A stretch of 64,000 bases of DNA from an uncultured delta proteobacterium (GCA_963851365.1 CAWKPA010000003.1:64390-128389); one strand, 5' to 3'. Shown: positions 12,095 through 35,330, counted from the stretch's first letter. Notes: generated by a model from the sequence alone, not told the origin. Made by a program: numbers and translations.

Positions 12095-12110
12095 CGCACC
12101 CTCCCGTCGG

Positions 12111-12212
12111 GAGCGTAGGCGCGATAAAGCGGCGAAGGGCGACATAACGCCCGAACCCGGACGTTGGCGGTCCTGTCCCGCCCTGTCTCCCCTCACCCCC
12201 CCGGTTGCCGCG
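12111..12212. repeat. REP-X: ~100-bp GC-rich interspersed repeat with two 5-bp stem hairpins (copy 1, intact)
   Basis: agcgtaggcgcgataaagcggcgaagggcgacataacgcccgaacccggacgttggcggtcctgtcccgccctgtctcccctcacccccccggttgccgcgg. It recurs at 16064-16165. Copies at 20893 and 26380 are split by an IS. Confidence 0.7.
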
Positions 12213-12283
12213 GAATGGTCTGGCAGTGGATCGCCGTCGCGGTCACCTGATCGATCGGCATGCGAAGCGCCTCGATGTCCGCC

Positions 12284-12370: not shown

Positions 12371-12479
12371 CTTTTGAATCCTCTATCGGCTTTCGCCGAG
12401 AGCCGATGTGCGGTCGCTATTACGGAACGGCAGCGATCGGGTAGACGCGCCGGGCGGCAGGTTCGTAGCGACCGCCGCC

Positions 12480-13481: not shown

Positions 13482-15248
13482 GGCTTACGGCCATCGGGCT
13501 CGATGAAGCCGTGCCACGGGCTCCAGTTGTCGGCGACCGGCACGAGGCCCTTCTGGGCAGCGAACTGGTCGTAGATGGCGATCAGCTTCTTCAGCCGCTC
13601 GGGTTGCGCGGCGTCGAGCGGCTGCGTTTCGCCCGGGTCGTTGCGAATGTCGTACAGGTGCCACTGGCCGTCGCCGTACATGCCCGGTCGCACCCGCATC
13701 GCCTTGTAGTCGCCGGCCACGACATAGCCGTTGCCGAACAGCTCGAAGACCACTGGCTGCGCTTCGGTGCGCGGCTGCTCGGCCCGGCCTTCGAGGAAGC
13801 TGCGCATCGAGACGCCAGAAGGCGCGGCGATCTTGCGGCCCCGGTAGCCCTGCGGCGCCGGCTGGACCCCGGCGTAGTCCAGGATCGTCATCGGCAGGTC
13901 CTTGACGTTCGCGTACTCGGCGCTCAACTGCCCGCGACGTGGGGACGGCTGGCTCCGCGGCGGGACCACGATCAGCGGCGTGCGCACGCCGCCTTCACCG
14001 ATGAACCACTTCCACCACGACAGGCCGCCGGTCACGGCATTGGCGAAGTCGGTGCCGATGAAGGCGTAGGAATCGCCCCAGCCGATGTGCTCGAAGGCCT
14101 GGCTGAAATTCGCGCTGCACCCACTTCGTGGCGCCCGGATTGCTGAGCGCGCCCTGGTCGTCGAAGCCCTCGGGGCCGTTGTCGGACAGGTAGACGATCA
14201 GCGTGTTGTCGAGCTGGCCGGTCTCGCGCAGGTAGTTCAGCAGCAGGCCGATGTGATGGTCCTGCGACTCCATCATCGCCGCGTAGGTGGCCATGACGCG
14301 CGCGAAGCGCCGCTTGTCGTCCTCGCTCAGCGACGACCAGCTGCGCAACAGGTGGTTCTTGCCGGCGTCGGGATACGGCGCGTCCTTCGGGAGGATCCCG
14401 AGCCGCTTCTGCGCCTCGAAGCGTTCGCGCTTCAGGCCCTCGAAGCCGAGCGCGTAGAAGTGCTGCTCGTACTTGTCGACCAGGAAGTCCGGCGCCTGCA
14501 CCGGCGCATGCGGCGTGGTGTAGGCGACGTAGGCGAAGAACGGCTTGCCGGTTGGGCGGCCCTGCTCCAGGTAGCTGAGCAGCTTGGCCGTGTACAGGTC
14601 GTCGGAGAAGATGCCCGTGGGGCGCACGACCCGCTCGCCGTTCTCGAAGTAGGGCTCCCTCGGGATCCTTCCGGCCTTGACGTCGGCGGCGGCTTGCGGG
14701 TCCTCGAGGTCGACGTGGAACACGCCGTCGTTCCAGTGGTTCGCGCCGCCGGTATAGATCCCGTAGCTGCGGTCGAAGCCCCACTGGGCAGGCGGCTCGC
14801 CGCCGTGGCGCGTGCCACCGAGGTGCCATTTGCCGACCATGTAGGTGCGGTAACCGGCGTCTTTCAGCAGCTCGGCGATGGTGGCCGTGGTGCGGGTCAG
14901 GTAGGCCTCGTAGCCGCGCTTGCCCTTGGCGCCGGGATAGAGCGAGTAGTCGAACGCGGCGAGCCCGATCTCAACCGGGTTGTTGCCCGTCAGCAGCATG
15001 GCGCGCGTGACCGAGCAGACCGGCGAGGCATGAAAGCGCGTGAACGTGGTCCCGTGCTGGGCCAGACGGTCGATGGTCGGCGTGCGAGTCGCCGCTCCGG
15101 TGAAACCGAAGTCTCCGAACGCGGCGTCGTCGGCGACGATCAGCAGGACGTTCGGCCTCGTTTCCGACGCTGTCTGTGCGTGCGCGGGCGCTGTTGGGGT
15201 GCAGAAACAGGCCCACGCGGCCAACAAAAACAGGGTCAAGGATCTCAT
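13478..15248 (-). CDS. sulfatase-family (alkaline-phosphatase superfamily) enzyme, paralog 1; split across two frames near 14000-14050
   Basis: Signal peptide, then NVLLIVADDAAFGDF...FTRFHASPVCSVTRAMLLTGNNP...YMVGKWHLGG. The C-terminal half is in ORF 13478-14035. About 80% aa identical to 23551-25311. The active-site pentapeptide is C-S-V-T-R, not the canonical C-x-P-x-R. Confidence 0.75.
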
Positions 15249-15249
15249 C

Positions 15250-15335
15250 GGGAGCGGATAGAGGATTCAAAAGGGCGAGTTGCCGTCAACCCCTACCAGC
15301 CTACCGCCCGGCGCGTCTACCCGATCGGTGCCCTT
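15250..15335. repeat. ~85-bp inverted repeat, right copy
   Basis: Reverse complement of 12284-12370. Confidence 0.7.
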
Positions 15336-15608
15336 CCGTAACGGAAGTTGGAGAGCGGTCTGCCGATTCGAGCTCGCGGGAACAGCGGTCGGCATACAGC
15401 AAGAGTCTCGATCTCGAGCTTGGCCCCCGCATTCCTTTGGGGCCGGGATGCGGAGCTTCAGCTCGAGGGCCCCTTTGCCACGCGCTTCGCGACGCGTCTG
15501 AGCTCGATATCACCTTGCCCCCTATGGACGTGCCCCGGTACCATTACACGGTAGCCACCCAGCCAGAGGTGTACAATGCCTAGATGCAGTCCCCGGACCG
15601 CCTCCTGC

Positions 15609-16070
15609 ATGGCTCGCGGCGCAGTCGCCCTCGCGATCGTCTGGTTCGTAGCAGTGTCGGGACAGGCTCGGGCGATTCCTCTGACGGATTGCACGGAGCG
15701 TATGGAGGGCGTTTTCACAAGCGCGAGTGGGGCGCGCAATCCGCTGCGACTCCGCATCGTGGTCACGGGCCCCGGGTTCGCCCTGTCGGGACGTTTCCGC
15801 TGCCGGCGCGGCTCCGCCGGTCGATGTGTAGTGCCGGTGGCGAGCGTCGACGGTCACCTGGTCGGGGATGCCGCGACGACGCGTTATCAGGTGTCCTTGT
15901 CTCGCGGCCACGGGGACGCGTATCGGCTGCTCTGCCGGCTGGACGGCACGGCACCGTTTCTCTTCGGCCTCTACCTCCCAGCTCTTGAGGGTACCTACAC
16001 CTGCGATGACGGTGGGGGATTGAGTGACCGGGGCACGTTTCAGCTCGTGGGTGTGGGCCGGGGTGCGTAG
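15609..16070 (+). CDS. hypothetical small secreted protein
   Basis: MARGAVALAIVWFVAVSGQARA is a signal peptide. Cys-rich, about 150 aa. No recognised domain. Confidence 0.3.
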   Translation: MARGAVALAIVWFVAVSGQARAIPLTDCTERMEGVFTSASGARNPLRLRIVVTGPGFALSGRFRCRRGSAGRCVVPVASVDGHLVGDAATTRYQVSLSRGHGDAYRLLCRLDGTAPFLFGLYLPALEGTYTCDDGGGLSDRGTFQLVGVGRGA

Positions 16071-16165
16071 GCGCGATAAAGCGGCGAAAGGCGACATAAC
16101 GCCCGAACCCGGACGTTGGCGGTCCTGTCCCGCCCTGTCTCCCCTCACCCCCCCGGTTGCCGCGG
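16064..16165. repeat. REP-X copy 2 (intact)
   Basis: Near-identical to 12111-12212. Confidence 0.7.
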
Positions 16166-16416: not shown

Positions 16417-19400
16417 ATGGTCCGGTTGTCGATTCGTCTCGAGGTTCTCATCGGTCTGCTCTCGCTCGTCCTCTTCGCGCCCATCCGGGGCATCGCCGCC
16501 GTCGAGTGTCCTCCGGCGCGCTATCTCGTACCGGACGGCTCGCCGGCCGCCGTGATCGAAGTGCTGGACGACGGCACGGTGGCGGTCGAAGGCGTGTGTC
16601 CTCCCATTCCTGCGAAGCTGAAGGGCAAGCGGCGCGTGCAGAAGGTGCGCGCCACGTGGCCCAAGGATGCGTGCCAGGGGCTTACCGGCAAGGTGAAGCT
16701 CAGGGCGAAGATCGACGAGACGTGTGGTACGCTTCGCGGCAAGCTACGCGCGAAGAAGCTTCGGCAGAAGTTCCTCGCGTCGGTCTCCCGATGCGACGAT
16801 GGTTTGCTCGATCCGCCGGTCGATGGAGCCTGTCCGCTGCTGGAGGGTCCGGGCGATGCGCTCGCGGTGGACGCGGTGCTCGACATGGATCGCGAGGACG
16901 GCGTGCCCGACGCCGAGCTGGAAGGCGACGAGGCCGACGGAATGGTCGCCCGCACGCGGCTCGAGGTCGAGATCATGCCGGACGCGACGGTCGGGCAGGT
17001 GAACGCCGCGATCGCCGAGGTGAGCGGCGAGGTGCTGCTCTCGATCCGCGGCATGCCGTTTCTCCTCGTTCGCATCCCCGACCCGGGAACCCGTGCGGCG
17101 CTGGATGACGTGGTCGCCACCATGGCGGGCATGCCTGGCATCGCGACGGTCTTGCCTGGTGCGGTGCCCGGCCCCGATGCGCTCCCGGCGAACTACGCGC
17201 CGATCACCGGCGCGGACCTCGGGCGCATCGACCATCATCTCGCCGTCCGGGCGCCCGCGGCGTGGAACGCGCAGGCGGCTGCGGTGGCGAACGTGAACGT
17301 CGTCGTGGCGGACCTGTTCGGGGGCGGTCCTCCGAACGGCGATCTCACCGCGACCATCACGTCGGCGGACTTCGCGACGGGTGCGCTCAGGGATCACGGC
17401 TACCATGTCTCCGGCATCGTCACGGGACGTTTCGGTGGGACGGCGTGTACGGGCGCGATCGGAACCACCGGCGCCGCCGGACGCGGCTGCGTGACCGGGA
17501 TGTATCCGGGGACGCCGCGGCTGCCCGTGGTCGATCTCCGGCTCGGCCTGACCGACCTCGCGGTGCAGAAACGCATTCTGGATCGCGTGTCGCTCGCGAC
17601 GGGGCCCGTCGTGGTCAACACGAGCCTCAACGACTGCGGGGACGGCGCGTGCGGCAACGCGGCGATCGCGGCCATTCTCGCGCGCCGGTGGGTCACCCTG
17701 GTGCGCGACATGGGGCTCGAAGAGCGGTTCCTGCACGTCACGACCTCGGGAAACATCAAGCTGCAGGCGCCGAGCGTCATCGACGCGCAGACGAACAGCG
17801 CGTACAGCGCGGCGGCGCTGCTGCCCGGTCTCACCACGGTGTTCGGCTTCGAGCTTCCGAACCTCACGAACCTCCTCGTCGTCGACAACGTCGCGAACGG
17901 TCCGGGGCCCGATTTCGCCCCGGTGTGCATGGACGAGACGTCGAAACGGGGCGGAACCATCAGCGGGATCGGCGCGGGGACCGGCGCGGGCTCCGGCGAC
18001 GACGTCTGGTCGTTCGCCGATGCGACACAGGCGAGCCGCTTCGCCGGTGGTACGTCGATGGCCGCGCCGCAGGTGAGCGGTCTCGCGGCATACCTCTGGA
18101 GCGTCGATCCAGGCATGACGGTCGCGGAGATGCAGTCGGCGTTGCTCCAGACGGCGCGTCCCGTCGTGCCGTCCACGACGGCCGGCGACTGCGCCGCCGC
18201 GGGCGTGGTGCCGGCGCCCATCATCGACGCCTACGACGCCATCCTCTCGCTCGATGCCGCGGAGCCGCCCGATCCGATCGTCGCGACCGTGCGCCACGCC
18301 ATCATGGATCACGACGGCGACGGGCGGTTCGACGACGCCGACGTGCGGGCGTTTCTGACCGCGTACTTCGATGGCTTCGTGTCGGCCGAACAGCCCGGTG
18401 CGCCCGTCGAGCCGATCGACCGGACCTTCGGTCGCGAAGATCTGAACGGCGACGGTTTCGTCGGCGGTGCGCGCACCGATGCCTTCGATCTCGATCGCGT
18501 GGACTCGGTGCAGTACGGCGTGAGCGGGTACGGTCTCGTCCAGCAGGGCGTCGAGAACGGGGTCGCGACCTTCGACGAGGCCGCGGTGACCGACCTCGAC
18601 GTCCTGTGCTTCTACGCGTACTCGGACCTCTACGAGGGAGCGTCCGCCGCCCGCACGACGCTCCTCGGGTCGGCGATCTGCAATCCCATCCGGCTGCTGA
18701 TCGGCTTTCCGTCCACGGTCGAGGTCGCCGTCCCCGAGGTGCTCTCCGTCGAGGTGCTCCGCGAGGATCCGCAGCTCGGCAGCGTGCCGCTCGCGGGGGC
18801 GCTCGTCGAGATCGACGTGCTCGGGGGGAACGCGCTGGCCGGCGACGGCGTGACGGACGGGCAAGGGCGGTTCGAGACGGAAGTGGCCGCGGACGGTAGC
18901 GCCTCGCCGATGCGGATCGTGGCGCGCGTTCGTGACGTTCCCGAGGGGCCGGTGCTGGTCGAGGGCTTCGTCGATGCGACGATCGCGACGACCACCACGA
19001 CCACGTCGACCACGCTCCCGCCGGGCAGCTCCTTCGTGTGTCACGATGCAGAAGTAGCCGAGCGCGAGGTGCCGTGGCAGGGATTCGGTGAAGACTGCGA
19101 TCCGTTTCCCGGCTGCGGATGCGAGGAGCGCTGCAGCCCCAGCCCGGACATCGAGCTCGAGGTCACCCAAGACGAGACGGAGCTGGTGGCCGCGTTTCGA
19201 AGGCGCTCCGGGGCAAGCCCCATCGCATTTTCCGGTGGCGCCGTGGAAAACGTCCTCACGATGGATCAGGTCGACGGGGACCTGCATCTCGTGGCAACAC
19301 TGCGATCCGACGGCGTGCTGGCCGGGCGGATCGATCGGGACTTCTTGTGCAACGGGTTCGTCTGTAAGAACGGTTGGGACTTCGAGCTCGGCTGCGGGGC

Positions 19401-20148
19401 CTCCCCGACGACGACGTCGAGCACGACGCTCGCCACGACCACCACCACCACCAGCAGCACCACCACCACGTCGACGACGGAGACGACGACCCCCACCACC
19501 AGTACGACGACGACCACGACGGCGACGTTGCCGCCGGGCGCCGGCTTCGACTACCGGCTCTACCCGGCCACGGGGCCCGACGCGCCCTCGGTCACCCTCG
19601 TCGACGAGTTCCGCAACGAGACCGTCGACCTCGATGCCGTCGACTTCCACCTGGCGCCGTCCGGCATTGGCGGGGCGTTCCCGGTCGATCCGAGGTCGGA
19701 CCTCACATGCTACCAGCACCCGGGCGCGGTCTTCTCCGGGAGCGCGAGCGTGGTGAATCGCTTCTCGGCGAATACGCAGGCGCTCACGCTGACGGGCCCG
19801 ATCGCGACCTGCGTGCCACGGGACGATGCGCTGGTGCAGGTGGATCATTTCACCTGCTATGGAGCGAGCGGGTCCAGCGTCGATACGCCGCTCACGATCT
19901 TCGATCGATTCCAGAGCGAGAGCGTGACCGTCGGTGCGCCGACGCTCTACTGCACGCCGACGGACAAGAACGGCGAGGGCGTGCTCGTCCCACCGACGCC
20001 GCAGGTCGTCTGCTATGGGGCGACGCCCCAGGGTGCGGCTCCAGGCGGGTTCGAGGTGACCAACCAGTTCCACACGGCGCCGCTGGACCTCGCCGCTCCG
20101 GCGGCGCTCTGCGTCAGCTCCTTCGTCGAGAGCGTGAGCGGGAGCTGA
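16417..20148 (+). CDS. large secreted subtilisin-like serine peptidase (S8 family), 1243 aa, with Thr-rich linkers and dockerin/EF-hand-like Ca-binding repeats
   Basis: Catalytic motifs: Asp NVVVADLF, His HGYHVSGIVTG, Ser GTSMAAPQVSG. N-terminal signal. Poly-Thr linkers (ATTTTTTSTT, TTTSSTTLATTTTTTSSTTTTSTTETTTPTTSTTTTTT). DHDGDGRFDDADVRAF and NGDGFVGGARTD repeats. Confidence 0.85.
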   Translation: MVRLSIRLEVLIGLLSLVLFAPIRGIAAVECPPARYLVPDGSPAAVIEVLDDGTVAVEGVCPPIPAKLKGKRRVQKVRATWPKDACQGLTGKVKLRAKIDETCGTLRGKLRAKKLRQKFLASVSRCDDGLLDPPVDGACPLLEGPGDALAVDAVLDMDREDGVPDAELEGDEADGMVARTRLEVEIMPDATVGQVNAAIAEVSGEVLLSIRGMPFLLVRIPDPGTRAALDDVVATMAGMPGIATVLPGAVPGPDALPANYAPITGADLGRIDHHLAVRAPAAWNAQAAAVANVNVVVADLFGGGPPNGDLTATITSADFATGALRDHGYHVSGIVTGRFGGTACTGAIGTTGAAGRGCVTGMYPGTPRLPVVDLRLGLTDLAVQKRILDRVSLATGPVVVNTSLNDCGDGACGNAAIAAILARRWVTLVRDMGLEERFLHVTTSGNIKLQAPSVIDAQTNSAYSAAALLPGLTTVFGFELPNLTNLLVVDNVANGPGPDFAPVCMDETSKRGGTISGIGAGTGAGSGDDVWSFADATQASRFAGGTSMAAPQVSGLAAYLWSVDPGMTVAEMQSALLQTARPVVPSTTAGDCAAAGVVPAPIIDAYDAILSLDAAEPPDPIVATVRHAIMDHDGDGRFDDADVRAFLTAYFDGFVSAEQPGAPVEPIDRTFGREDLNGDGFVGGARTDAFDLDRVDSVQYGVSGYGLVQQGVENGVATFDEAAVTDLDVLCFYAYSDLYEGASAARTTLLGSAICNPIRLLIGFPSTVEVAVPEVLSVEVLREDPQLGSVPLAGALVEIDVLGGNALAGDGVTDGQGRFETEVAADGSASPMRIVARVRDVPEGPVLVEGFVDATIATTTTTTSTTLPPGSSFVCHDAEVAEREVPWQGFGEDCDPFPGCGCEERCSPSPDIELEVTQDETELVAAFRRRSGASPIAFSGGAVENVLTMDQVDGDLHLVATLRSDGVLAGRIDRDFLCNGFVCKNGWDFELGCGASPTTTSSTTLATTTTTTSSTTTTSTTETTTPTTSTTTTTTATLPPGAGFDYRLYPATGPDAPSVTLVDEFRNETVDLDAVDFHLAPSGIGGAFPVDPRSDLTCYQHPGAVFSGSASVVNRFSANTQALTLTGPIATCVPRDDALVQVDHFTCYGASGSSVDTPLTIFDRFQSESVTVGAPTLYCTPTDKNGEGVLVPPTPQVVCYGATPQGAAPGGFEVTNQFHTAPLDLAAPAALCVSSFVESVSGS

Positions 20149-20828: not shown

Positions 20829-20946
20829 AACGGGATCTGCTTCGCATCGGTCTGCTGCTCGGCGTCGTGGGCATCGCCCCATGGGTGAGCGGAGCGTAGG
20901 CGCGATAAAGCGGCGAAGGGCGACATAACGCCCGAACCCAGACGTT

Positions 20947-22440
20947 GACGTGTAGGCCCCAAGTGCAAATGTCCGGTTTCTCCAAAGTAGAGATGTCCGC
21001 CTGGACCCCACAGTGCCGGGTGCCATGGCGACGACCGTGGGGCTGACCATGGGGGAACTGGACCGCCTGCAGATCCTGACCCGGCTCGCCGAGCGGCGGC
21101 TGACGCAGCGCGCGGGCGGCCGCGCTGCTCGCGGCTGAGCGAGCGCCAGGTGCGGCGGCTCTATCGGCGCGTTCCAGGACGACGGCGCGGCGGCGCTGGC
21201 CTCGCGGCGGCGCGGTCGCCCGAGCAATCGGCGGCTGCCCGCGCGCGTCCGCGACCGGGCACTGCGCGCTGGTCCGCGCGCGCTACGCCGACTTCGGGCC
21301 GACCTTCGCGCACCAGAAGCTCACCGAGGACCACGACCTCGTCCTGTCGGTCGAGACGCTGCGCGGCTGGATGATCGCCGCCGGGCTCTGGGTGCCGCGC
21401 GTCCAGCGCGCCCGCCGGAGCTATCCGCCGCGGCCGCGCCGCGCGTGTCCCGGCGAGCTCGTCCAGATCGACGGCTCCGACGCACGCCTGGTTCGAAGAC
21501 CGCGGGCCCGTCTGCACGCTGCTCGTCTACGTCGACGACGCCACCAGCCGGCTGATGGAGCTCTGCTTCGCCGACGGTCGAGTCGACGTTCGACTACTTC
21601 CGCGCGACGCGCCGCTACCTCGAGCGCCACGGCAAGCCGATGGCCTTCTACAGCGACCGGCTGAGCGTCTTCCACGTCCAGGCCCGCGACCGCGCCCAGG
21701 GCGGCGCCCGGGCTGTCGCAGTTCGGCCGGGCGTGCAGGCCCTCAACATCGACCTCTGTGCGCCAACAGCCCGGAGGCCAAGGGCCGCGTCGAACGCGCC
21801 AACGGCACGCTGCAGGACCGGCTCGTGAAGGAGCTGCGGCTCCGCGGGCTCAACGATCCCGTCGCGGCCACGCCGTTCCTCCCCGCGTTCATGGCCGACT
21901 ACAATCGCCGCTTCGCCAAGCCGCCCGCCGTCGCCTACGACGCGCATCGGCCGCTGCGCCCGGCGGACGACCTCGACCAGGTCTTCACGCTGCAGACGAC
22001 GCGCCGGATCAGCCGCCAGCTCACCGTGCACTACAAGCGCGACCTCTACGTGCTCACCGACACCGTCGCGACTCGCCGCCTGCGCGGGGCCACCGTGGAC
22101 GTCCGCGAGGCGGAGGACGGCACCGTCACGTTGCACGCCCAGGGCGCGTCCGCTGGCGGCCCGCCTCTTCCCGAAAGATCACGCGCAGATCGCTCCGGGA
22201 GCCGTCGTCGCGTACCCGCATCTCGACGGCGCCTTCGACCTGGATCGCGGCGCAGCAGCGCGAGCGCGACCAGGCGCGGCTCGCCAATCCCAAGCTCAGC
22301 GCGGCGCGAGAAGCAGCGGCTGCGCGCGGGCCGGCCGCTGCGTGTCCCGGCCTCCCCCACGGAGTGAAACCGGACATCTCTACTTGGGGCAAAGGCGGAC
22401 ATTTCTACTTTGTGTTGACATGACATGACATGACATGACG
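20947..22440 (+). mobile_element. ISNCY-family (IS1202-like) insertion sequence, copy A; transposase reading frame heavily disrupted
   Basis: The ends are shared with copy B: left gacgtgtaggccccaagtgcaaatgtccg..aaagtagagatgtccg, right ...ctactttgtgttgac(atgac)4. Transposase fragments MATTVGLTMGELDRLQILTRLAERRL, GELVQIDGSDA, FYSDRLSVFHV, AKGRVERANGTLQDRLVKELRLRGL sit in several frames (21025-22367). It is inserted inside a REP-X copy (20893-20946 and 22441-22471). Confidence 0.7.
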
Positions 22441-22648
22441 ACCCTACCTCCCCCCCCGGGGCTGCCGCGGACGAAGACGCAGGCGATGCTGCCGAGCGAG
22501 GACGCGGTGCTCTTGCTCCTCTTCGGCCTCCTGATGAGCGGGCAGATTCGCTCGCGCAAGATCGACGGCTGGCAGGAGCTGCCGGCGGTCATGGCGACGC
22601 GGAGAAAGGCTGCGTAGCCGCGGATATCAACTCGGACTCACGCGCGGA

Positions 22649-23563
22649 GTGATGACCGGACCTTTTCCACACGTTGACAGACACGACCGCATGGCGTACG
22701 CGCCTACCGTGCAGGCGGAGGCGGGGTTCACCCACCATGCACTGCGGCACTTCTCCGGAAATCTCGGTGCCCCGCAGACCGATCCGTTGTCGCACGCCGA
22801 CGTGTACGCTGGCCTGCAGGCAGCCATCGGCGTGCTGGCTGCATTGCGCCAGCGCGAGCGCACCGGCCGCGGCCAGCACATCGACGTCGCGATGGCAGCC
22901 ACGATCATGGCCATCAATGAGCGTGCACACGTTGACCTGAGCGGCCTGGACATCGGGGACGAGCCCGCAATTCTCGGCGCGACCGACGGCTCGTTCTTCA
23001 AGGGGCCCGGCGTCGAGACCTTCGTTTCGGCCATCAGCCTGGTCGGAACGATCACGTTCCGTTTCTTCATGGCTGCAATGCGACGGCCGGACCTTGCGCA
23101 GGACACGCGTTTTACCACCCCGGGTGCGCGACGGGCGAACCTGGATGCGTTGAGGGCGATCGTGCAGGCGTGGATCTACTCGTTCCCGGACCTCGCGGCG
23201 CTGGATGCGCAGCTCGACGAGGCGAAGATCGCCATCGGCGAGATCCGCTCACCCGAGCACGTGGCGGACAGCGAGTGGGCCGAGTACTGGACGGCCACGC
23301 ATCGCGTCTCCGACCGCAATGGTGGCGATTTCCGCCTGCCCGGGCGGCCCTGGAAGTTCTCGGCCGCGGAACTCGATCCCCCAGGTGAGCCCGCGCTGCA
23401 GGGCGAGCACAACGCAGAGGTCTGCACGCTGCTCGGCCTCGATGCGCAGGAAACGGAGCGGCTCGCGCACTCCGGAGCGCTGGTCGGGAATTTCGCGGCG
23501 CAGATGATTGCGGTGGTTCTCGGTGAATCGAATTCTGCTGGAGCGACTGAATGCGAACATTGA
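22649..23563 (+). pseudogene. CoA-transferase family III (CaiB/BaiF-like), N-terminally truncated
   Basis: GLQAAIGVLAALRQRERTGRGQHIDVAMAATIM... matches the central and C-terminal regions of family III CoA transferases. The expected ~100-aa N-terminal glycine-rich region is absent. It starts just downstream of IS copy A. Confidence 0.55.
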
Positions 23564-25311
23564 TCCTGTCCTGTATTGCCGCCGGCGTGATCGCAGGGAC
23601 GGTGTCTCCGTACGCCCGGGCGGAGAAGCCCGTAAAACGGCCAAATGTCCTGTTGATAGTCGCCGATGACGCGGCACTGGGCGATTTCAGTTCTACCGGC
23701 GCCGTGACCCGAACGCCGAACATAGATCGCATCGCGCAAGAAGGGATCACCTTTACGCGATTCCATGCCTCACCGGTGTGCTCGATCACGCGGGGCATGT
23801 TGCTGACCGGAAACAACCCGGTGGAAATCGGTCTCGGCGCCTTCGACTACTCGCTCTATCCGCCGGCGGAGGGCAAGCCGGGCTACGAGGCCTACCTGAC
23901 CCGAACGACGGCCACGATTTCCGAACTGCTGCGCGACTCCGGCTACCGCACCTACATGGTCGGCAAGTGGCACCTCGGCGGGACCCGTCACGGCGGCGAT
24001 CCGCCGATCGAATGGGGATTCGATCGCAGCTACTCGATCTACACCGGTGGCGCCAATCACTGGAACGACCAGGTATTCCACATCGACATGCACGACCCGG
24101 AAGTTGCCGAGCAGGTCAAGGCCGGCAAGATCCCGGCTGAGCCGTACTATGAGGACGGCAAGCGCGTCGCGCGGCCCACGGGCGTCTTCTCGGACGAGCT
24201 CTTCACGACCAAGCTGCTCGAATACCTCGAGACGGACCGCGAGAGCGGCAAGCCGTTCTTCGCCTACGTCGCCTATACGACTCCGCACGCACCGGTGCAG
24301 GCGCCGGACTTCCTCATCGACAAGTACGAGCAGCACTTCTACGAACTCGGCTTCGATGGCCTCAAGCGCTCTCGTTTCGAGGCCCAGAAGAAGCTCGGCA
24401 TCATCCCGCAGGACGCAAAGTACCCCGACACGAGCAAGAACCACCTGCTGCGCGCCTGGTCGTCATTGAGCGAAGAAGACAGGCGCCGGACGGCGCGCGT
24501 CATGGCCACCTACGCGGCCATGCTGGAATCGCAGGACTACAACGTGGGCCTGATCCTCAACTATCTTCGCGAGACCGGCCAACTCGACGATACGCTGATC
24601 GTGTACCTGTCCGACAACGGGCCCGAAGGTACGGACGTCCAGGGTGAGCTGAGCAACGCTGCTGCCACACAGTGGGTGCAGAATAACTTCAGCCAGGCCT
24701 TCGACGACATCGGGGACGGCAACGCGTTTTCATTCATCGGTACAGATTTTGCCAATTCCGTTACCGGTGGCCTGTCATGGTGGAAGTGGTTCATCGGCGA
24801 AGGCGGTATCCGCACGCCGCTGATCATCGTTCCGCCCACCAACCGGGCATTTGCCCGCAAGGGCGACAAGACCTCCGAGTACGCCAACGTCAAGGACGTG
24901 CCGACCACGATCCTTGACTACGCCGGAGTCGAGCCGGCCCCGCAGGGGTACCAAGGTCGGAAGATCGTCGCGCCGTCCGGAGTGTCGATGCGCAGCTTTC
25001 TCGAAGGCAAGAGCGAGCGCCCTCGCACGGAAAACCAGTGGGTCGCGTTCGAGCTGTTCGGCAACAGTTTCGTCGTCGCGGGTGACTACAAGGCAATGCG
25101 CGTCCGGACAGGCATGTACGGCGACGGCCAGTGGCACTTGTATGACATTCGCAACGATCCCGCTGAAACCACTCCGCTCGACGGTGCGCAGCCCGAGAGG
25201 CTCGAGCGAATGATCGCGATCTACGACAGTTACGCAAAAGAGAAGGGCATCGTGCCCGTCGCCGAAAACTGGAGTCCCTGGCACGGCTTCATCGACGAAA
25301 AGAATCCCTGA
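23551..25311 (+). CDS. sulfatase-family enzyme, paralog 2 (intact, 586 aa)
   Basis: Signal peptide. NVLLIVADDAALGDF...FTRFHASPVCSITRGMLLTGNNP...YMVGKWHLGG. C-terminal WHLYDIRNDPAET. The active-site pentapeptide is C-S-I-T-R. Confidence 0.85.
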   Translation: MRTLILSCIAAGVIAGTVSPYARAEKPVKRPNVLLIVADDAALGDFSSTGAVTRTPNIDRIAQEGITFTRFHASPVCSITRGMLLTGNNPVEIGLGAFDYSLYPPAEGKPGYEAYLTRTTATISELLRDSGYRTYMVGKWHLGGTRHGGDPPIEWGFDRSYSIYTGGANHWNDQVFHIDMHDPEVAEQVKAGKIPAEPYYEDGKRVARPTGVFSDELFTTKLLEYLETDRESGKPFFAYVAYTTPHAPVQAPDFLIDKYEQHFYELGFDGLKRSRFEAQKKLGIIPQDAKYPDTSKNHLLRAWSSLSEEDRRRTARVMATYAAMLESQDYNVGLILNYLRETGQLDDTLIVYLSDNGPEGTDVQGELSNAAATQWVQNNFSQAFDDIGDGNAFSFIGTDFANSVTGGLSWWKWFIGEGGIRTPLIIVPPTNRAFARKGDKTSEYANVKDVPTTILDYAGVEPAPQGYQGRKIVAPSGVSMRSFLEGKSERPRTENQWVAFELFGNSFVVAGDYKAMRVRTGMYGDGQWHLYDIRNDPAETTPLDGAQPERLERMIAIYDSYAKEKGIVPVAENWSPWHGFIDEKNP

Positions 25312-25346
25312 GTCACGTCATTCAACCCAATGGAATTCACGCAGCC

Positions 25347-26315
25347 ATGAATACAACTTCCGATCCGATTGGTTTTCTCGGCCGGCTGAACGCCAGTGTG
25401 CTGCTCGCGGTTACGCATGAGTATGCTCAGGTCAGGAATGCCGCGCGTCCCGGCGCCGGGCGTGCCGAGTCCCGCGCGGTGCAGTTCAGTATTCGTCCCG
25501 AGTTTCGCAGCATCGATGGCGTCAAGGTTCGCTTTGCCCAGGGTGGAAAGCAGGATGGTCCCGTCGTGCTGCTGCTGTGTCCGCTGCCGCAGAGCATCCT
25601 GTGCTACGAGCCGATCTGGGACAAGCTTGCACAGCACTGCCGGCTGGTCGCGCTGGACCTGCCCGGATTCGGACGCAGCGAAGGCGGCCTCGAGTTCATG
25701 GGCTTCGACGCCCAGAGCCGCTTCCTGGACAAGTTCATCCGCACACTGGGACTCAAGCAGGTTCACATCGTCGGCCCGGACGTCGGCATGCCGGTGGCAC
25801 TGCATTACGTGATATACCGTCAACACGACGCAGCCAGCGTGATCGTGGGTGACGGTCCGGCCATTGCGCCCTCGACCAACGGCAGCATCATCGACAAGAT
25901 GGTGGACTCCGGGTTCTGGCGCATGATGTTCGCCGTTACCGGATCCAAGGCTTTTGTGGAAGGCGGCTGTCGCCTCGGCTGCGTGAACTACGTTCCCAGC
26001 ACCGCGGAAGTCGCGGATTACGTCGCGAGTTATGCCGGGCGCATTGGCACGGTGACGCAATGGTTCAAGGCCTATCCCGAGAACCTCGCAACGGTCGACC
26101 CGCACCTCGCCAGCCTCGACCTGCCGGTGCAGCTCTTCTGGGGCGATCTCGACCAGTTCCTGCTCGTCGACAACGCCCACCGCTTGCAGCAGCGGCTCAA
26201 GCGCAGTCAATTGCGGGTGTTCGAGCGCTGCGGGCACTTCTCTTACCAGGACAAGCCCGAGGAATTCGCCGAGATGCTGCTCACCTGGGTGGGCGGCGGG
26301 TATCGCGGCGTCTGA
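25347..26315 (+). CDS. alpha/beta hydrolase fold protein (paralog 2)
   Basis: 322 aa, about 80% identical to 12480-13481. LLLCPLPQSILCYEPIWDKLAQHCRLVALDLPGFGRS...HIVGPDVGMPVALHY. Confidence 0.8.
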   Translation: MNTTSDPIGFLGRLNASVLLAVTHEYAQVRNAARPGAGRAESRAVQFSIRPEFRSIDGVKVRFAQGGKQDGPVVLLLCPLPQSILCYEPIWDKLAQHCRLVALDLPGFGRSEGGLEFMGFDAQSRFLDKFIRTLGLKQVHIVGPDVGMPVALHYVIYRQHDAASVIVGDGPAIAPSTNGSIIDKMVDSGFWRMMFAVTGSKAFVEGGCRLGCVNYVPSTAEVADYVASYAGRIGTVTQWFKAYPENLATVDPHLASLDLPVQLFWGDLDQFLLVDNAHRLQQRLKRSQLRVFERCGHFSYQDKPEEFAEMLLTWVGGGYRGV

Positions 26316-26433
26316 GCGGGCGCACCAGCTCTGTACAAACATAGAGGCAGCATGACCGATACGTACCAGACTGATTCGGAGCGTAGGCGCGATAAAGCGG
26401 CGAAGGGCGACATAACGCCCGAACCCAGACGTT

Positions 26434-27918
26434 GACGTGTAGGCCCCAAGTGCAAATGTCCGCTTTCCCCAAAGTAGAGATGTCCGCCTGGAGCCCCCAG
26501 AGGTGGCGCCATGGCGGACACGCTGGGGCTGACCATGGGGGAGCTGGACCGACTGCAGATCCTGACTCGGCTCGCGGAGCGCCGGCTGACCCAGCGCCGG
26601 GCCGCCGCGCTGCTCGGGCTGGGCACGCGCCAGGTGCGGCGACTCTCCCGCGCTTTCCAGGGCGACGGCGCCGCGGCGCTGGCCTCGCGCCGGCGGGGTC
26701 GCCCGAGCAATCGGCGGCTGCCCGCGCGCGTCCGCGACCGGGCACTGCGCCTGGTCCGCGCGCGCTACGCCGACTTCGGGCCGACCTTCGCGCACCAGAA
26801 GCTCACCGAGGACCACGGCCTCGTCCTGTCGGTCGAGACGCTGCGCGGCGGGCTCATCGCCGCCGGGCTCTGGCTGCCCCGCGCCCAGCGCGCCCGCCGC
26901 AGCTACCCGCCGCGGCCGCGCCGCGCGTGTCCCGGCGAGCTCGTCCAGATCGACGGCTCGGAGCACGCCTGGTTCGAAGACCGCGGGCCGGCCTGCACGC
27001 TGCTCGTGTACGTCGACGACGCCACCAGCCGGCTGATGGAGCTGTGCTTCGCCGAGGTCGAGTCGACGTTCGACTACTTCCGTGCGACGCGCCACTACCT
27101 CGAACGACACGGGAAGCCGATGGCCTTCTATAGCGACCGGCTGAGCGTCTTCCACGTCCACGCGCGCGACCGCGCCCAGGGCGGGCCCGGGCTGTCGCAG
27201 TTCGGCCGGGCGTGTCGGGCCCTCAACATCGACCTGCTGTGCGCCACCAGCCCGGAAGCCAAGGGGCGCGTCGAACGGGCCAATGGCACCTTGCAGGACC
27301 GGCTCGTGAAGGAACTGCGGCTGCGGGGGCTCAACGATCCCGTCGCGGCCACGCCGTTCCTCCCCGCGTTCATGGCCGACTACAATCGCCGCTTCGCCAA
27401 GCCGCCCGCCGTCGCCTACGACGCGCATCGGCCGCTGCGCCCGGAGGACGACCTCGACCAGGTCTTCACGCTGCAGACGACGCGCCGGATCAGCCGCCAG
27501 CTCACCGTGCACTACAAGCGCGACCTCTACGTGCTCACCGACACGCGTCGCGACCCGCCGCCTGCGTGGGGCCACCGTGGACGTCCGCGAGGCGGAGGAC
27601 GGCACCGTCACGTTGCACGCCCAGGGGCGTCCGCTGGCGGCCCGCCTCTTCCCGAAAGATCACGCGCAGATCGCTCCGGGAGCCGTCGTCGCGTACCCGC
27701 ATCTCGCCGGCGCCTTGACCTGGATCGCGGCGCAGCAGCGCGAGCGCGACCAGGCGCGGCTCGCCAATCCCAAGCTCAGCGGGCGCGAGAAGCAGCGGCT
27801 GCGCGCGGGCCGGCCGCTGCGTGTCCCGGCCTCCCCCACGGAGTGAAACCGGACATCTCTACTTGGGGCAAAGGCGGACATTTCTACTTTGTGTTGACAT
27901 GACATGACATGACATGAC
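26434..27918 (+). mobile_element. ISNCY-family (IS1202-like) insertion sequence, copy B, with near-intact transposase (26511-27846, one frame break near 27560)
   Basis: A 463-aa ORF with MADTLGLTMGELDRLQILTRLAERRLTQRRAAALLGL (HTH), GELVQIDGSEHAWFEDRGPACTLLVYVDDATSRL, FYSDRLSVFHV, ATSPEAKGRVERANGTLQDRLVKELRLRGLND, FMADYNRRFA. The true C-terminus ...RVPASPTE is in ORF 27577-27846. Imperfect ~45-bp terminal IRs. It is inserted in a REP-X copy (26380-26433 and 27919-27951). Confidence 0.8.
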
Positions 27919-28179
27919 GCCCCGACGCCCCTCCCCCCCCGGCTGCCGCGGCGAAGCCACAACGAGGAACGGCCGCATCGGGCGCTGGGGCGGAAGCCCC
28001 CACGCACTTTCTCCCGCGGCCGTCGGAACCCCGAGAGTCCAGGAATGCGGTGTCTACTTGACGGGGCTGACTACGCCTCGGCCGGCCTGTTGGCGAACAC
28101 GTAGTCGTACGACTCGACTGACGGATTCGGTGCGCGAGGGCCAACGCGAGGCATCCTCAGATGATCCGAGAGGCTGGAG

Positions 28180-29223
28180 TCAGTCCGCCAGCATAGGCGT
28201 CAGGAGCTTTCGCAACCGTGCAATCCAGTCCTTGTCGGTGACCTCAAGATAGTGGAAACTCTCATCCACGGCCTGTCGGAGCTTAGCCTGGAATAGGCTG
28301 CCGTGCTGGTAGGATTCGACCAAGAAGATGACCGCCTGGTCACCCTCGATCGCATGACAGTAGTACCCGAAACCGTTCGGAGGCTGCGTGTAGAAATGGC
28401 CCGGCTGCAAGACAGTATCGAACCGTAGGGCTCCCTCGAACGTCCAGTCGGCACCCGTGACGACGTTCTGGTGCCTGTAGGTGATCATCATGCGCGCAAA
28501 CACGTTGGGGTCGAGACGATTGTCTTTGCCCATGACGCGCGCTTCCTGAACTTCACAGTCGAAGGACACGCGCTTGACCTTTGCTTCATTCTCAAGGGCG
28601 CGACCGGTGGCTAGTACCGGCTCCGGGAATACCCACTCCTTGGAGAAATTCGTCTGCTTGACTGGAGGAATACGATCGTCGTGAGTAAGCACGTCAATCA
28701 CACGCTCGACGGTCATCGACTCGCCCGTACCCTGCAAGAGTGTGTTCCTTATCTGGAAGTGTAGGCGCGTCGGCTCCTCGGAGAGAACGATAGGTGGTCC
28801 GTCGACTACCTCAAGGCGCACGTTGCGGATGAAGAGCGCGGGGACAGTCCTGTCTTGTACGCCCGAAGGCGATGCCGGGGCAGCCTCACTGATCGTAACG
28901 AGATCAATGCCGTGGCGGCGAGCTACCGTGATCGCACCGTCCTGGAACCCGGACGTCGATACCATGATCGCCTTGTTCGCGTGGACGTCGTGCGACTTCG
29001 TCACAAAGGCATCGACGTCCAATGCCTTGACGGCCTGACTGGGCTGATCCCTACATTCGACGACCACGAGATAGTGATAGCCACCGGCATCGAACCGAAC
29101 CGTAACGTCGAACTGCCGATCCGAAATCTCCTCGTCCCACGTGACCACCGCGCCGTGATGTTCGGCGCGTTGAATCGCCGCGATGAGCTGTTCAAAGGCT
29201 CGCCAACCCGACGCCGTGATCAA
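28180..29223 (-). CDS. protein with N-terminal restriction-endonuclease-like (Mrr_cat / PD-(D/E)xK) domain fused to a ~230-aa C-terminal domain of unknown function
   Basis: 347 aa. N-terminus GWRAFEQLIAAIQRAEHHGAVVTWDEEISDRQFDVTVRFDAGGYHYLVVVECRDQPS...AIMVSTSGFQDGAITVARRHGIDLVTI matches the Mrr catalytic-domain pattern. The C-terminal region has no family I recognise. Local GC is well below the window average. Confidence 0.55.
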   Translation of the reverse strand: MITASGWRAFEQLIAAIQRAEHHGAVVTWDEEISDRQFDVTVRFDAGGYHYLVVVECRDQPSQAVKALDVDAFVTKSHDVHANKAIMVSTSGFQDGAITVARRHGIDLVTISEAAPASPSGVQDRTVPALFIRNVRLEVVDGPPIVLSEEPTRLHFQIRNTLLQGTGESMTVERVIDVLTHDDRIPPVKQTNFSKEWVFPEPVLATGRALENEAKVKRVSFDCEVQEARVMGKDNRLDPNVFARMMITYRHQNVVTGADWTFEGALRFDTVLQPGHFYTQPPNGFGYYCHAIEGDQAVIFLVESYQHGSLFQAKLRQAVDESFHYLEVTDKDWIARLRKLLTPMLAD

Positions 29224-29904
29224 GACGCGATCCTCCAGCGGACGCTTGTCGAGGAAAGTACGAGATGCGCGGAGCGCATAGACGTAGCAATGAAGACGAG
29301 CTGCCCTCCGCCGCGATAGGGTTCGCGGTGGACCACGGGGTCAACCGAGACGGTGCCCCAAAACAGCGAGGAGGGCAGCCCGATGGAATGCTACGTGGGA
29401 TTGGACGTGCACAGCAGTGGGCCACGCGTGCGAGGAGGTCGCCTGCCGCTGCGGTCACGGCACGTTCATAGCAGACTGTGTGTAGAATGCAAGAGATGTG
29501 ACGGTGCTAGGTCACGCCGCGCTCCGTGTTGGGCGCGGGACACCCTGGAGCAAGCGTGCGAGCTCGGCGCCGTCGATCCGTACGCCTGGACCGTCGCCGA
29601 GCAAGAGTTCGCGGTCAATTGTCCGCTTCCCCTGGCTCACGCCGCCTCATATCCGTCGCACCCCACGATCTGGAGGGGGTGCTTCCTGTTCGTCGACTCG
29701 CGGTTTCTGCTCCCCGCTTCTTTCAGCGCCAGCCTCGCGACCGGACCGGTCTCCCGGCTTCTTCGCCTTGCGGTTCGCTCGAGGTCACTGCGATCAACTC
29801 CCTCCAGGATTTTCACCCGTTCATCACCTCCCTGCTGGGCACACAACTAAGCCGCTTCGCGGCAGGCCGGAGCTCGCCGCGCAGGCGCAGGGGGGCCATA
29901 CACG

Positions 29905-35241: not shown

Positions 35242-35243
35242 AG

Positions 35244-35330
35244 CGGAGGGGGGGAGATTCGAACTCCCGAGGACTTGCGCCCTGGCGGTTTTCAAGACCG
35301 CTGCCTTAAACCGGACTCGGCCACCCCTCC
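35244..35330 (-). tRNA. tRNA-Ser (anticodon UGA), class II with long variable arm
   Basis: Minus-strand sequence GGAGGGGTGGCCGAGTCCGGTTTAAGGCA GCGGT CTTGAAA ACCGC CAGGGCGCAAGTCCTCG GGGAG TTCGAAT CTCCC CCCCTCC G. Acceptor stem 7 bp, D-arm GCCGAG..AAGGC, anticodon stem 5 bp with loop CTTGAAA (TGA), T-loop TTCGAAT. Coordinates may be off by 1. Confidence 0.85.

Follow-up and report, generated by a model that had tools for sequence, protein, structure and literature searches.

The two insertion sequence (IS) copies in this region are explained, with a probability of roughly 0.75, as a pair of site-hunting elements of the IS1202 family that entered the dif-like core of a dispersed repeat, REP-X, and are now decaying, rather than as the arms of a working composite transposon. 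In the 64-kb window (the whole stretch of DNA that was analysed), two direct repeats of approximately 1.5 kb were detected, both on the + strand and 94.5% identical over 1496 aligned bases, as expected from the preliminary description, which reported two IS copies of the same orientation. These copies, A and B, were found inserted at one and the same position of two 104-bp REP-X repeats, again in agreement with that description. The features of the region are listed in Table 1.

Table 1. Coordinates of the IS pair, the REP-X copies and the enclosed segment in the 64-kb window
Feature	Position	Strand	Remarks
Unoccupied REP-X e1, 104 nt	12110..12213	+	core 12137-12164, followed by single TGGCG (duplicated TGACG in occupied copies)
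Unoccupied REP-X e2, 104 nt	16062..16165	+	right half identical to that of e1
REP-X(A) left half	20891..20945	+	core 20918-20945: GGGCGACATAA CGCCCG AACCCAGACGT, dif-like 11-6-11
Copy A left TSD TGACG, 5 bp	20946..20950	+	
IS copy A, IS1202 family, 1470 bp	20951..22420	+	ends TGTAGG...GTTGACA; transposase broken, 13 one-base indels
(TGACA)3, copy A	22421..22435	+	three extra pentamers between IS end and right TSD
Copy A right TSD TGACG	22436..22440	+	
REP-X(A) right half, 30 nt	22441..22470	+	C-rich, terminates ...GCTGCCGCGG
IS256-family remnant	22471..22686	+	last ~49 transposase codons, stop 22615-22617, and ~70 nt up to start of caiB homology; tblastn E about 1e-3 to annotated IS256 family transposases; no Pfam hit
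5'-truncated CoA-transferase family III (CaiB-like) gene	22687..23563	+	CoA_transf_3 profile positions 128-366 of 366 only
Sulfatase paralog 2, 586 aa	23551..25311	+	intact ORF
Alpha/beta-hydrolase paralog 2, 322 aa	25347..26315	+	intact ORF
Second alpha/beta-hydrolase gene, first 8 codons (MTDTYQTD)	26352..26377	+	severed at REP-X(B) left edge; complete (312 aa) in L089
REP-X(B) left half	26378..26432	+	core 26405-26432; same sequence as in copy A
Copy B left TSD TGACG	26433..26437	+	
IS copy B, 1462 bp	26438..27899	+	frame shifted by one extra G at 27545
(TGACA)3, copy B	27900..27914	+	same extra pentamers as copy A
Copy B right TSD TGACG	27915..27919	+	
REP-X(B) right half, 32 nt	27920..27951	+	25 matches in 32 columns against right half of copy A
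Probable C-terminal remnant of rve-type (IS3-like) transposase (..NEERPHRALG..)	27952..28002	+	rve_3 E=0.0015, below Pfam cutoff; second search E 0.2; weak

The IS limits in Table 1 were set from relatives with clean 5-bp duplications; the limits first proposed, 20947-22440 and 26434-27918, ran 4 nt too far to the left and about 20 nt too far to the right. The pentamer run previously placed at both right ends is present, as (TGACA)4.8 at 22416-22439 and 27895-27918, but its extra pentamers lie outside the IS, between the ACA end and the right target-site duplication (TSD). Duplications anticipated at 8-9 bp at the outer ends do occur, but as 5 bp (TGACG) around each IS. Similarly, of the REP-X halves described as the same at both copies, the left halves are identical and the right ones are not (Table 1).

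When its frame was repaired, copy B encoded a product of 444 aa, 95% identical to the intact protein P0001; intact 444-aa relatives exist at 95% identity. The repaired protein scored 449.9 bits against NF033594 (ISNCY_2; cutoff 250), showing the earlier assignment to an ISNCY/IS1202-like family to be correct, and was 49% identical to ISKpn21-family transposases. The putative DDE (RNase H-fold) catalytic residues of the predicted protein, D148, D209 and E255, showed no variation among 12 relatives with identities as low as 52%. Comparison with five intact relatives located 13 one-base indels in copy A and a single one, the extra G, in copy B, in line with the initial view of a fragmented and a nearly intact gene; the close relatives are long-read metagenome-assembled genomes (MAGs), and polishing artefacts in a multi-copy repeat could account for some of the indels and mosaicism seen in copy A.

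The IS copies are 1462-1470 bp long, compared with 1455-1461 bp in intact relatives, and their terminal inverted repeats (TIR) are imperfect, matching at 18 of 26 positions. Each end carries two transposase-site repeats, CAAGTGCAAATGTCCGG and CAAAGTAGAGATGTCCGCC at the left and CCGGACATCTCTACTTGGGG and GGCGGACATTTCTACTTTG at the right. TGACG brackets both A and B, and the corresponding duplications in relatives are CCGCG, GCGCG, GGCCG, TCGTC and TGACT; in L001, L002, L004 and L081, the TGT...ACA ends are directly bordered by them. The short-TSD subgroup of IS1202 is delimited by a transposase of 441-457 aa, a length of about 1.5 kb, an imperfect TIR of 24-26 bp and a TSD of 3-5 bp. Judged by its sequence, the element is a previously unnamed member of this family, belonging to the short-TSD (ISAjo2/ISAba32) subgroup. 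It resembles ISAjo2/ISAba32-type elements (also ISKpn21, ISMex6, ISRel26 and ISBcen27) in its size of approximately 1.46 kb, in encoding one transposase of 444 aa that combines N-terminal HTH domains with a DDE core, in its 5'-TGT...ACA-3' ends with an imperfect 26-bp TIR, another inner-TIR copy close to each end and a 5-bp TSD, and in the placement of the left, transposase-proximal end relative to an 11-6-11 site (exactly 5 bp away, always in one orientation, and with repeated use of the same site possible). It differs from them in sharing only about 45-53% aa identity with named members or plasmid-borne relatives, in residing in an uncultured high-GC lineage (its relatives being labelled 'delta proteobacterium' MAGs and Candidatus Binatia), and in using as target the core of a dispersed, genome-specific repeat of about 104 nt, lacking a recognisable XerC arm, instead of a lone dif or a plasmid pdif.

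The 64 kb contain REP-X four times (expectation from shuffles, 0), and all four copies lie within 16 kb, on the + strand and in direct orientation. The two empty copies, e1 and e2, hold a single TGGCG at the target position. Left halves are 93-100% identical among copies, and right halves diverge immediately past the core. In the occupied copies, the IS left end lies 5 bp from the 11-6-11 core, an offset and orientation matching those published for the subgroup. At the XerD-arm position the core reads TTATGTCGCC(C/T), retaining TTATGT and the outer GACGT. A PWM was derived from the 24 distinct target sites of the published Table 8, and with it this arm ranked 2-43 among the 127,944 positions of the window, in the expected register. 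With the same PWM, the XerC arm scored -11.6 bits and bore no resemblance to published sites. Hence, by sequence likeness, only the XerD-arm side of the core is dif-like; the label of Xer site is not justified for the REP-X core, since its XerC-arm half is unlike published sites, and its recognition may rest on something other than Xer-site likeness. Folding of REP-X as DNA gave z-scores of -0.34, -1.35 and -0.25, with no REP/REPIN-type palindrome; no TIR was seen between GGAGCGTAGG... and ...TGCCGCGG and no duplication around e1 or e2, as a MITE would have, and an Rfam search returned no match at the gathering threshold or at E<=1.

Insertions at the same position were observed in related metagenomes. 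In L082/L085, the IS lies at this position in a REP-X-like sequence (86% over 51 nt) with the TSD TCGCG, and in L087 it does so with TGACT. Sites at which only the core is shared are likewise occupied at this position in L002 (GCGCG), L081 (TCGTC) and L086; the IS copies of L002 and L081 are 99.9% identical and sit at two different sites, so the lineage has been active recently. More distant relatives (about 52% aa identity) adjoin clear dif-like sites at the same offset, as in L052 and L014, and in a Vicinamibacterales MAG the arrangement recurs with that MAG's own repeat of about 110 nt and with empty copies of that repeat. Both things that the preliminary description proposed to look for were found, empty REP-X in the window and occupied junctions in the window and in related metagenomes; the four REP-X copies examined for occupancy all lie in the 64-kb window. 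Same-position junctions in independent metagenomes with different 5-bp duplications, together with the two empty copies, indicate that REP-X is a preferred target of the IS and not part of it, which was one of the readings first offered. This agrees with the published target behaviour of the short-TSD subgroup, characterised by a 5-bp offset, fixed orientation and TGT/ACA ends (PMC10132070; bioRxiv 10.1101/2022.12.17.520857). Its members are 'site hunters', in which a TnsB-like DDE transposase sets the left end exactly 5 bp from one side, the XerC side, of a dif-like (Xer recombination site-like) sequence and duplicates those 5 bp.

The other reading first offered was duplication of the whole REP-X::IS unit. 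A single insertion later block-copied by segmental duplication or recombination, so that A and B would not be independent targeted insertions, is a serious possibility, though on balance an unlikely one. The 61-nt stretch preceding both IS copies is identical (20890-20950 and 26377-26437), including two substitutions not seen in the empty copies, and the TSD is the same at A and B; an identical TSD would, however, be expected anyway from fixed-offset insertion into identical targets. The 15-nt (TGACA)3 expansion outside the IS occurs only in A and B: none of the related junctions has it, nor does the read-through product P0121. It therefore points to shared descent or gene conversion of the right junctions. 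Over the 3' 570 nt of the IS, A and B agree at 97-100%, but the first ~900 columns of the alignment show only 87-96% per 100-column window, except one at 99%, and copy B is locally closer to L082 than to copy A. The right REP-X halves, too, are more different than a simple recent duplication would leave them, and no homology was found between the surroundings of A and B beyond the REP-X edges. Gene conversion between two independent insertions accounts for the same data.

REP-X might instead be itself a recombination site, used by Xer or another site-specific recombinase and bounding exchangeable gene modules, with the IS copies as hitch-hikers; we consider this rather improbable. Between the four direct copies lie modules of about 3.8, 4.7 and 3.9 kb, and both sulfatase-hydrolase paralog sets are flanked by REP-X copies, the paralogs of the genes enclosed by the IS pair being encoded on the minus strand at 15248-12483, with 72-76% aa identity; yet the homology between the two paralog modules stops short of the REP-X edges. 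Near-identical left halves with right halves diverging right after the core form a hybrid-site pattern, and in L084 the REP-X homology ends exactly at the border between the XerD-like arm and the spacer, whereas the XerC-like arm is not recognisable. Truncated genes adjoin the outer edges of REP-X both in the window and in L084. Against this, all sites are direct, unlike those of Acinetobacter dif modules, no recombinase gene was identified nearby, and no circular or alternative arrangement was observed.

The enclosed segment of about 4 kb contains, as initially described, a truncated CaiB-family gene, a sulfatase gene and a hydrolase gene (Table 1), the truncation being at the 5' end because the profile match is limited to its later part. 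In L089, the segment 22687-26378 of the window has a counterpart with 88.6% identity over 3692 nt, and this homology stops at the edge of REP-X(B). The best homolog of the sulfatase (91%) is part of a normal operon that nothing interrupts, and the contig retrieved carries no IS. By this comparison, the passenger represents one piece of a caiB-sulfatase-hydrolase-hydrolase operon found intact elsewhere.

That the 7-kb unit works, or once worked, as a composite transposon and brought the caiB'-sulfatase-hydrolase segment to this locus appears very unlikely. The term 'composite-transposon-like' used at the outset holds for the topology: a passenger lies between two direct IS copies, whose outermost ends (IRL of A, IRR of B) are undamaged and retain both binding-site repeats. 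It does not hold for function. The unit contains no functional transposase, although intact 444-aa transposases in closely related or the same assemblies could act in trans. Each IS has its own TGACG pair, so that the outer pair is uninformative on movement of the unit, and the sequences searched contained the unit nowhere else. The passenger has a GC content of 0.631, against 0.692 for the window, but between it and the IS ends lie REP-X halves, an IS256-like remnant and a gene start that has been cut, boundaries which argue for operon decay in situ rather than capture.

The idea of a longer IS of about 1.58 kb with the REP-X halves as its subterminal parts, the empty copies being internally deleted MITE-like derivatives, was rejected as having almost no chance of being right: REP-X edges do adjoin truncated genes, as mobile-element ends would, and the sequence with which REP-X opens, CGTAGGCGCG (TGTAGGAGCG in L087), has a loose similarity to the IS terminus TGTAGGCCCC, but the 5-bp duplications border TGT...ACA and not REP-X (directly so in L001 and L004), relatives L001, L004 and L009-L012 lack REP-X entirely, the empty copies hold exactly one 5-bp target, and REP-X has neither terminal inverted repeats nor a flanking duplication.

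Dispersed intergenic repeats serve as specific, probably harmless landing pads for REP-targeting IS, such as IS1397/ISKpn1 of the IS3 family and IS110-family elements in REPs. REP-X serves as a landing pad in the same manner, but for another transposase family with another mechanism, and it is not a palindromic REP (folding z -0.3 to -1.35). In classical composite transposons of the Tn5 and Tn10 type, two copies of one IS, inverted, bracket non-IS genes. Copies A and B differ from these in being direct, in having defective transposases and a TSD each, in the REP-X halves lying between passenger and IS ends, and in showing no evidence of movement as a unit. Acinetobacter dif modules and xrs cassettes are similar to the present locus in that repeated dif-like sites border short gene modules and attract IS1202-family insertions. 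The REP-X locus is different in being chromosomal and in an environmental lineage, in its unconserved C arm, in module homology that falls short of the sites, and in that all four copies are on the + strand, the Acinetobacter sites being oppositely oriented.

For the site-hunting pair, the following history is proposed. In this genome, the landing pad would be the 28-bp core within the dispersed 104-bp REP-X, and we infer that it is recognised by the transposase or by a host Xer protein. Two insertions into neighbouring REP-X copies would have created the composite-transposon-like layout, since with four copies within 16 kb, two neighbouring insertions mimic such a transposon. Both IS copies would then have decayed, A through 13 frameshifting indels and B through one, and would have exchanged sequence, or shared descent, at their junctions, giving the identical left flank and, at the right junction, the (TGACA)3 slippage run common to both. 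The segment of 4 kb would be an operon leftover with both ends cut by mobile-element activity, and not demonstrable IS cargo. We also infer the order of these events; the anatomy, the family assignment, the insertions at the same position elsewhere, the empty sites and the truncated operon are observed. Several observations weigh against this history: the XerC-arm half of the core is unlike published sites (-11.6 bits); the common (TGACA)3 speaks against independence of the right junctions at least; truncated genes at the REP-X edges are not explained by simple IS insertion into a passive repeat; the four REP-X copies examined all lie within the 64-kb window; and long-read polishing may have contributed part of the damage in copy A.

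The truncated genes at the edges, the near-identical left and divergent right halves, and the break in L084 at the arm/spacer border leave room for a broader and distinctly speculative proposal, which we regard as improbable. REP-X and the Vicinamibacterales repeat of about 110 nt might represent a class of dispersed chromosomal repeats with a dif-mimicking core, themselves recombinogenic or mobile, that bound exchangeable gene modules in uncultured soil phyla, with IS1202-family elements as their specialised parasites. If so, REP-X-type repeats would be a chromosomal, directly oriented counterpart of the Acinetobacter dif modules.

Alignment confirmed two direct IS copies, A and B, of about 1.5 kb each (94.5% identity over 1496 bases), both in REP-X context; the 61 nt ahead of them are identical (20890-20950 and 26377-26437). 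Their limits, slightly misplaced in the preliminary description, were reset using five close relatives in public assemblies (contigs L001-L004 and L081). These have the ends 5'-TGTA(A/G)GCCCC...GTTGACA-3', and in four of the five a 5-bp duplication (CCGCG, GCGCG, GGCCG or TCGTC) lies directly at the IS ends. Copies A and B each have TGACG at the left and TGACA TGACA TGACA TGACG at the right, indicating that the target-site duplication (TSD) is TGACG and that three additional pentamers, which are outside the IS, separate its ACA end from the right-hand TSD. The terminal inverted repeat (TIR) matches at 18 of 26 positions, and its inner part is repeated at each end (left, ..AAATGTCCGG and ..AGATGTCCGCC; right, their complements). 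Alignment with five intact relatives showed 13 single-base indels in copy A and one in copy B, an additional G at 27545, without which B encodes a 444-aa protein 95% identical to the intact 444-aa database protein P0001. On a Candidatus Binatia contig (L005:1465-1476), the sequence next to a related IS end is TGACATGG; the junction there has a TGACA TGACA doublet, a shorter form of the pentamer array in the window, and the contig stops before the left flank.

Features of the window and segment-wise comparison of IS copies A and B
Feature	Position	Strand	Remark
ORF with FGE-sulfatase (sulfatase-modifying factor) domain	9031-10023	-	near sulfatase paralogs
Empty REP-X (104 nt, uninterrupted)	12110-12213	+	matches left stretch of A/B
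104-nt inverted repeat, arms	12301-12404, 15240-15343		90% complementary; brackets paralog-1 sulfatase-hydrolase pair
Partial third copy of the inverted repeat	12420-12468		beside one arm
Paralogs of enclosed genes	15248-12483	-	between the two empty REP-X copies
Empty REP-X (104 nt, uninterrupted)	16062-16165	+	matches left stretch of A/B
Subtilase-family ORF	16417-20148	+	1243 aa
CAC/GAC-rich tract	19406-19528		9-nt periodic, in the subtilase-family ORF; would encode His/Asp-rich repeats
IS copy A	20951-22420		limits transferred from close relatives
(TGACA)4.8 tandem array	22416-22439		behind A
IS copy B	26438-27899		limits transferred from close relatives
(TGACA)4.8 tandem array	27895-27918		behind B
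ORF with Mrr_cat restriction-endonuclease domain	28180-29223	-	lower-GC stretch (0.595 at 28-29 kb)
Group II intron domains D1-D4 (Rfam RF02001)	29631-29744	-	37.7 bits, gathering score 32
tRNA-Ser(TGA)	35243-35330	-	
A vs B, REP-X left half and first ~55 nt of IS			about 98% identity
A vs B, next ~850 nt of IS			mostly 87-96% per 100 columns
A vs B, last ~570 nt of IS, (TGACA)3 and TSD			97-100%
A vs B, right REP-X halves			25 matches in 32 columns

The repaired protein scored 449.9 bits on NCBIfam NF033594 (ISNCY_2; cutoff 250), and the initial family call (ISNCY, IS1202-like) was therefore correct. It has N-terminal HTH domains, residues D148, D209 and E255 are unchanged in twelve relatives down to 52% identity, and identity to plasmid-borne ISKpn21-family transposases is approximately 49%. 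The short-TSD subgroup of the IS1202 family, defined by Harmer, Pong and Hall in 2023 (PMC10132070) and by Siguier et al. (bioRxiv 10.1101/2022.12.17.520857), comprises elements of about 1.5 kb encoding transposases of 441-457 aa, with TGT/ACA ends, imperfect TIRs of 24-26 bp, a second, internal transposase site at each end, and 5-bp duplications; the transposase-proximal left end lies 5 bp off the XerC side of a dif-like site, in a single orientation. Judged from its sequence, the A/B element is a new member of this subgroup: it has the structural features of the element itself, and its left end has the published offset and orientation, here relative to a core that resembles dif on one side.

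The preliminary description had offered REP-X as either the preferred target or a subterminal part of the IS. Exactly four occurrences each of a 24-nt core pattern (shuffle mean 0.00) and an 18-nt right-end pattern (shuffle mean 0.13) were found in the 64-kb window, all on the plus strand. The two empty REP-X copies have a single TGGCG where the duplication would be, and in relatives that lack REP-X the duplications immediately adjoin TGT...ACA. These observations, together with independent sites occupied at the same position elsewhere, indicate that REP-X is the target and refute the view that it belongs to the IS.

Outward from the IS left end, the flank reads TSD CGTCA, ACGTCTGGGTT, CGGGCG and TTATGTCGCCC. 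The REP-X core thus has an 11-6-11 layout, and the position of the XerD arm opens with a conserved TTATGT. With a PWM made from 24 distinct published target sites (Table 8 of PMC10132070), the XerD arms of the four cores ranked 2nd to 43rd of 127,944 window positions, in the exact expected register; the XerC arm scored -11.6 bits, i.e., no resemblance to the published sites. By sequence comparison, only one side of the core resembles dif: what is retained is the XerD-arm-like half and an outer GACGT. An exact 20-mer of the core gave 0 matches in GTDB species genomes, and a 22-mer of the REP-X left half matched only 3 loci in JGI metagenomes, two of which are one locus.

Same-position insertions were observed in several relatives. 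On JGI contigs L082/L083 and L085 (second sample), the IS occupies the same REP-X position next to a left half that is REP-X-like (86% identity over 51 nt), and the TSDs are TCGCG/TCGCA; on JGI contig L087, where the transposase is 75% identical, REP-X is more diverged and has a C-run at the right, and the TSD is TGACT. Contigs L002, L081 and L086 have only the 28-bp core in common (consensus TGACAtAA-CcCCCg-aaGTCgGACGT). The IS copies of L002 and L081, one from a MAG and the other from a metagenome assembly, show 99.9% identity although their core-bearing sites differ (TSDs GCGCG and TCGTC), indicating that the lineage was recently active. Distant relatives (approximately 52% aa identity) in Alpha- and Betaproteobacteria adjoin unmistakable dif-like sites at the same offset, as in contig L052 (TTTTCCATAA TATATA TTATGCGATAT TTTAG|TGT).

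In the Vicinamibacterales MAG CBDFLL (contigs L006-L015 and L018), a related IS (55% aa identity) is present in at least 11 copies. The copy on L014 adjoins a near-canonical dif, and at least six others lie at the same offset within the genome's own specific repeat of approximately 110 nt, the core of which is dif-like (AGTTAACGGAA-N6-TTCTGCGACCC); empty copies of this repeat occur at L008:4436-4487 and L012:4403-4448. Insertion of IS1202-family elements into genome-specific repeats that have a dif-like core therefore occurs more than once. No description of this arrangement was seen in the IS1202 literature found, including PMC10132070 and bioRxiv 10.1101/2022.12.17.520857, where the targets noted are single dif-like sites. 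On L010 of the same MAG, two IS copies are in tandem. GC-skew profiles around L004 and L014, examined for whether the sites are termini, were uninformative at the 7-kb scale.

Duplication of the whole REP-X::IS unit, the other reading offered initially, is at most partly right. Identical TSDs in A and B are expected when identical targets are struck at a fixed offset, but the 15-nt pentamer expansion common to both is not; no other junction has it, nor does the read-through product P0121, which derives from another copy. We read the right junctions, and probably the left ones, as products of common descent or of homogenisation by gene conversion. Against duplication of the entire unit, the 5' parts and the right REP-X halves differ, and in places the middle IS segment of B is nearer to L082 than to A; we read the 5' parts as having separate histories. 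Recombination among several IS copies in the assembly would yield such an A/B mosaic. The source contig has at least four copies of the IS, with more on contigs of 703 kb and 290 kb; copies other than A and B on the 515-kb, 703-kb and 290-kb contigs are known from proteins alone. The sources of the close relatives are long-read MAGs, in which both indels and mosaics can arise when the consensus of a multi-copy repeat is polished.

The segment enclosed by A and B contains, as initially described, a truncated CoA-transferase gene (CoA-transferase III, profile positions 128-366 of 366), a sulfatase gene (586 aa) and an alpha/beta-hydrolase gene (322 aa). The best database relative of the sulfatase (91% aa identity) is on L089, a 5.7-kb contig with an uninterrupted caiB-sulfatase-hydrolase-hydrolase operon, 88.6% identical to the window over 3692 nt. 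Homology to L089 begins at 22687, within caiB; upstream lies an IS256-family remnant of approximately 215 nt, cut by the right edge of REP-X(A), for which a tblastn match of its 49-aa fragment (E about 1e-3) is the sole support, Pfam giving no match. Homology stops at 26378, the left edge of REP-X(B), eight codons (MTDTYQTD) into the second hydrolase gene, the remainder of which was not found beyond copy B, where there is a weak rve-type remnant. With these breakpoints and remnants, the enclosed 4 kb is best described, at the sequence level, as the stump of an ordinary operon lying between REP-X halves and IS debris, and not between IS ends.

The unit resembles a composite transposon in topology, as proposed, but a functional one is not supported: neither A nor B encodes an intact transposase, the two elements are each flanked by a separate duplication, and the A-passenger-B unit was not found a second time. 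Mobilisation by a transposase acting in trans is conceivable, though nothing supports it.

The 104-nt inverted repeat around the paralog-1 pair may be the trace of an inversion. Such an event would account for module 1 (the paralog-1 sulfatase-hydrolase set) being opposite to module 2 (the enclosed set) although every flanking REP-X copy is direct. In tblastn, sulfatase paralog 1 matched paralog 2 in two segments whose reading frames differ, changing at ~14103-14110; this points to a frameshift, a sequencing indel or a pseudogene.

The edges of REP-X resemble breakpoints. A gene is cut at the left edge of REP-X(B), the left edge of REP-X(A) follows a 24-codon stub which reads as signal-peptide-like, and the right edges of both adjoin transposase remnants. 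JGI contig Ga0209253_10285167 (L084:770-830) contains the first 37 nt of REP-X, as far as the XerD-like arm, between a 5'-truncated histidine-phosphatase gene without profile positions 1-74 at the left and unrelated sequence at the right, the homology breaking exactly at the border of the XerD-like arm and the spacer. Left halves of REP-X in the window are 93-100% identical, and right halves diverge directly past the core. These patterns would fit either site-specific exchange at the core or deletions via recombination between dispersed REP-X::IS units. That REP-X is itself a recombination site bounding the modules is unlikely; Pfam searches of ten mechanical ORFs from around 5-38 kb detected neither an integrase nor a Xer gene.

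Other identities considered for REP-X were rejected. Single-strand folding was not significant (z-scores -0.3 to -1.35), and the hairpin-type REP and attC readings were dropped for this reason; no R''/R' attC motifs were seen on reading the sequence. REP-X has neither the TIR nor the TSD of a MITE and no Rfam match, and it is not the coding 5' end of a histidine phosphatase, an idea raised by L084, since the Pfam match begins past the REP-X edge. Approximately 170 nt past the REP-X part of L084, GCCGCGG and a G-run resemble an inverted REP-X right end. Within REP-X, a GCGA(T/C)ATAA motif occurs twice in direct orientation, at a spacing of 21 nt. The left start of REP-X (window 12112-12121, CGTAGGCGCG; upstream of the IS in L087, TGTAGGAGCG) resembles the IS terminus TGTAGGCCCC, a likeness that may be due to chance.

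Among the ten mechanical ORFs, the FGE-sulfatase domain was the only Pfam match. The group II intron match and IS remnants suggest that a mobile-element graveyard reaches to the right of copy B, and the stretch from 10 to 35 kb is possibly a genomic island.

The mechanism here is probably the site hunting already known from the short-TSD IS1202 subgroup; the lineage is new, and so is the type of target, in that the dif-like core is half-degenerate and part of a dispersed repeat. Targeting of dif-like sites by this subgroup has so far been known mainly from Acinetobacter, Enterobacteriaceae, Burkholderia and rhizobia, with single dif or pdif sites as the documented targets. Here the behaviour is seen in uncultured soil lineages with high GC, with a genome-specific, multi-copy repeat of approximately 100 nt as the landing pad; an Acidobacteriota MAG independently showed this arrangement. 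In genome annotation, direct pairs of IS1202-family elements around genes are thus not necessarily composite transposons and can mark neighbouring copies of a target repeat. The half-degenerate cores provide a natural variant series for asking whether these transposases read the sequence, bound XerD/XerC or DNA shape.
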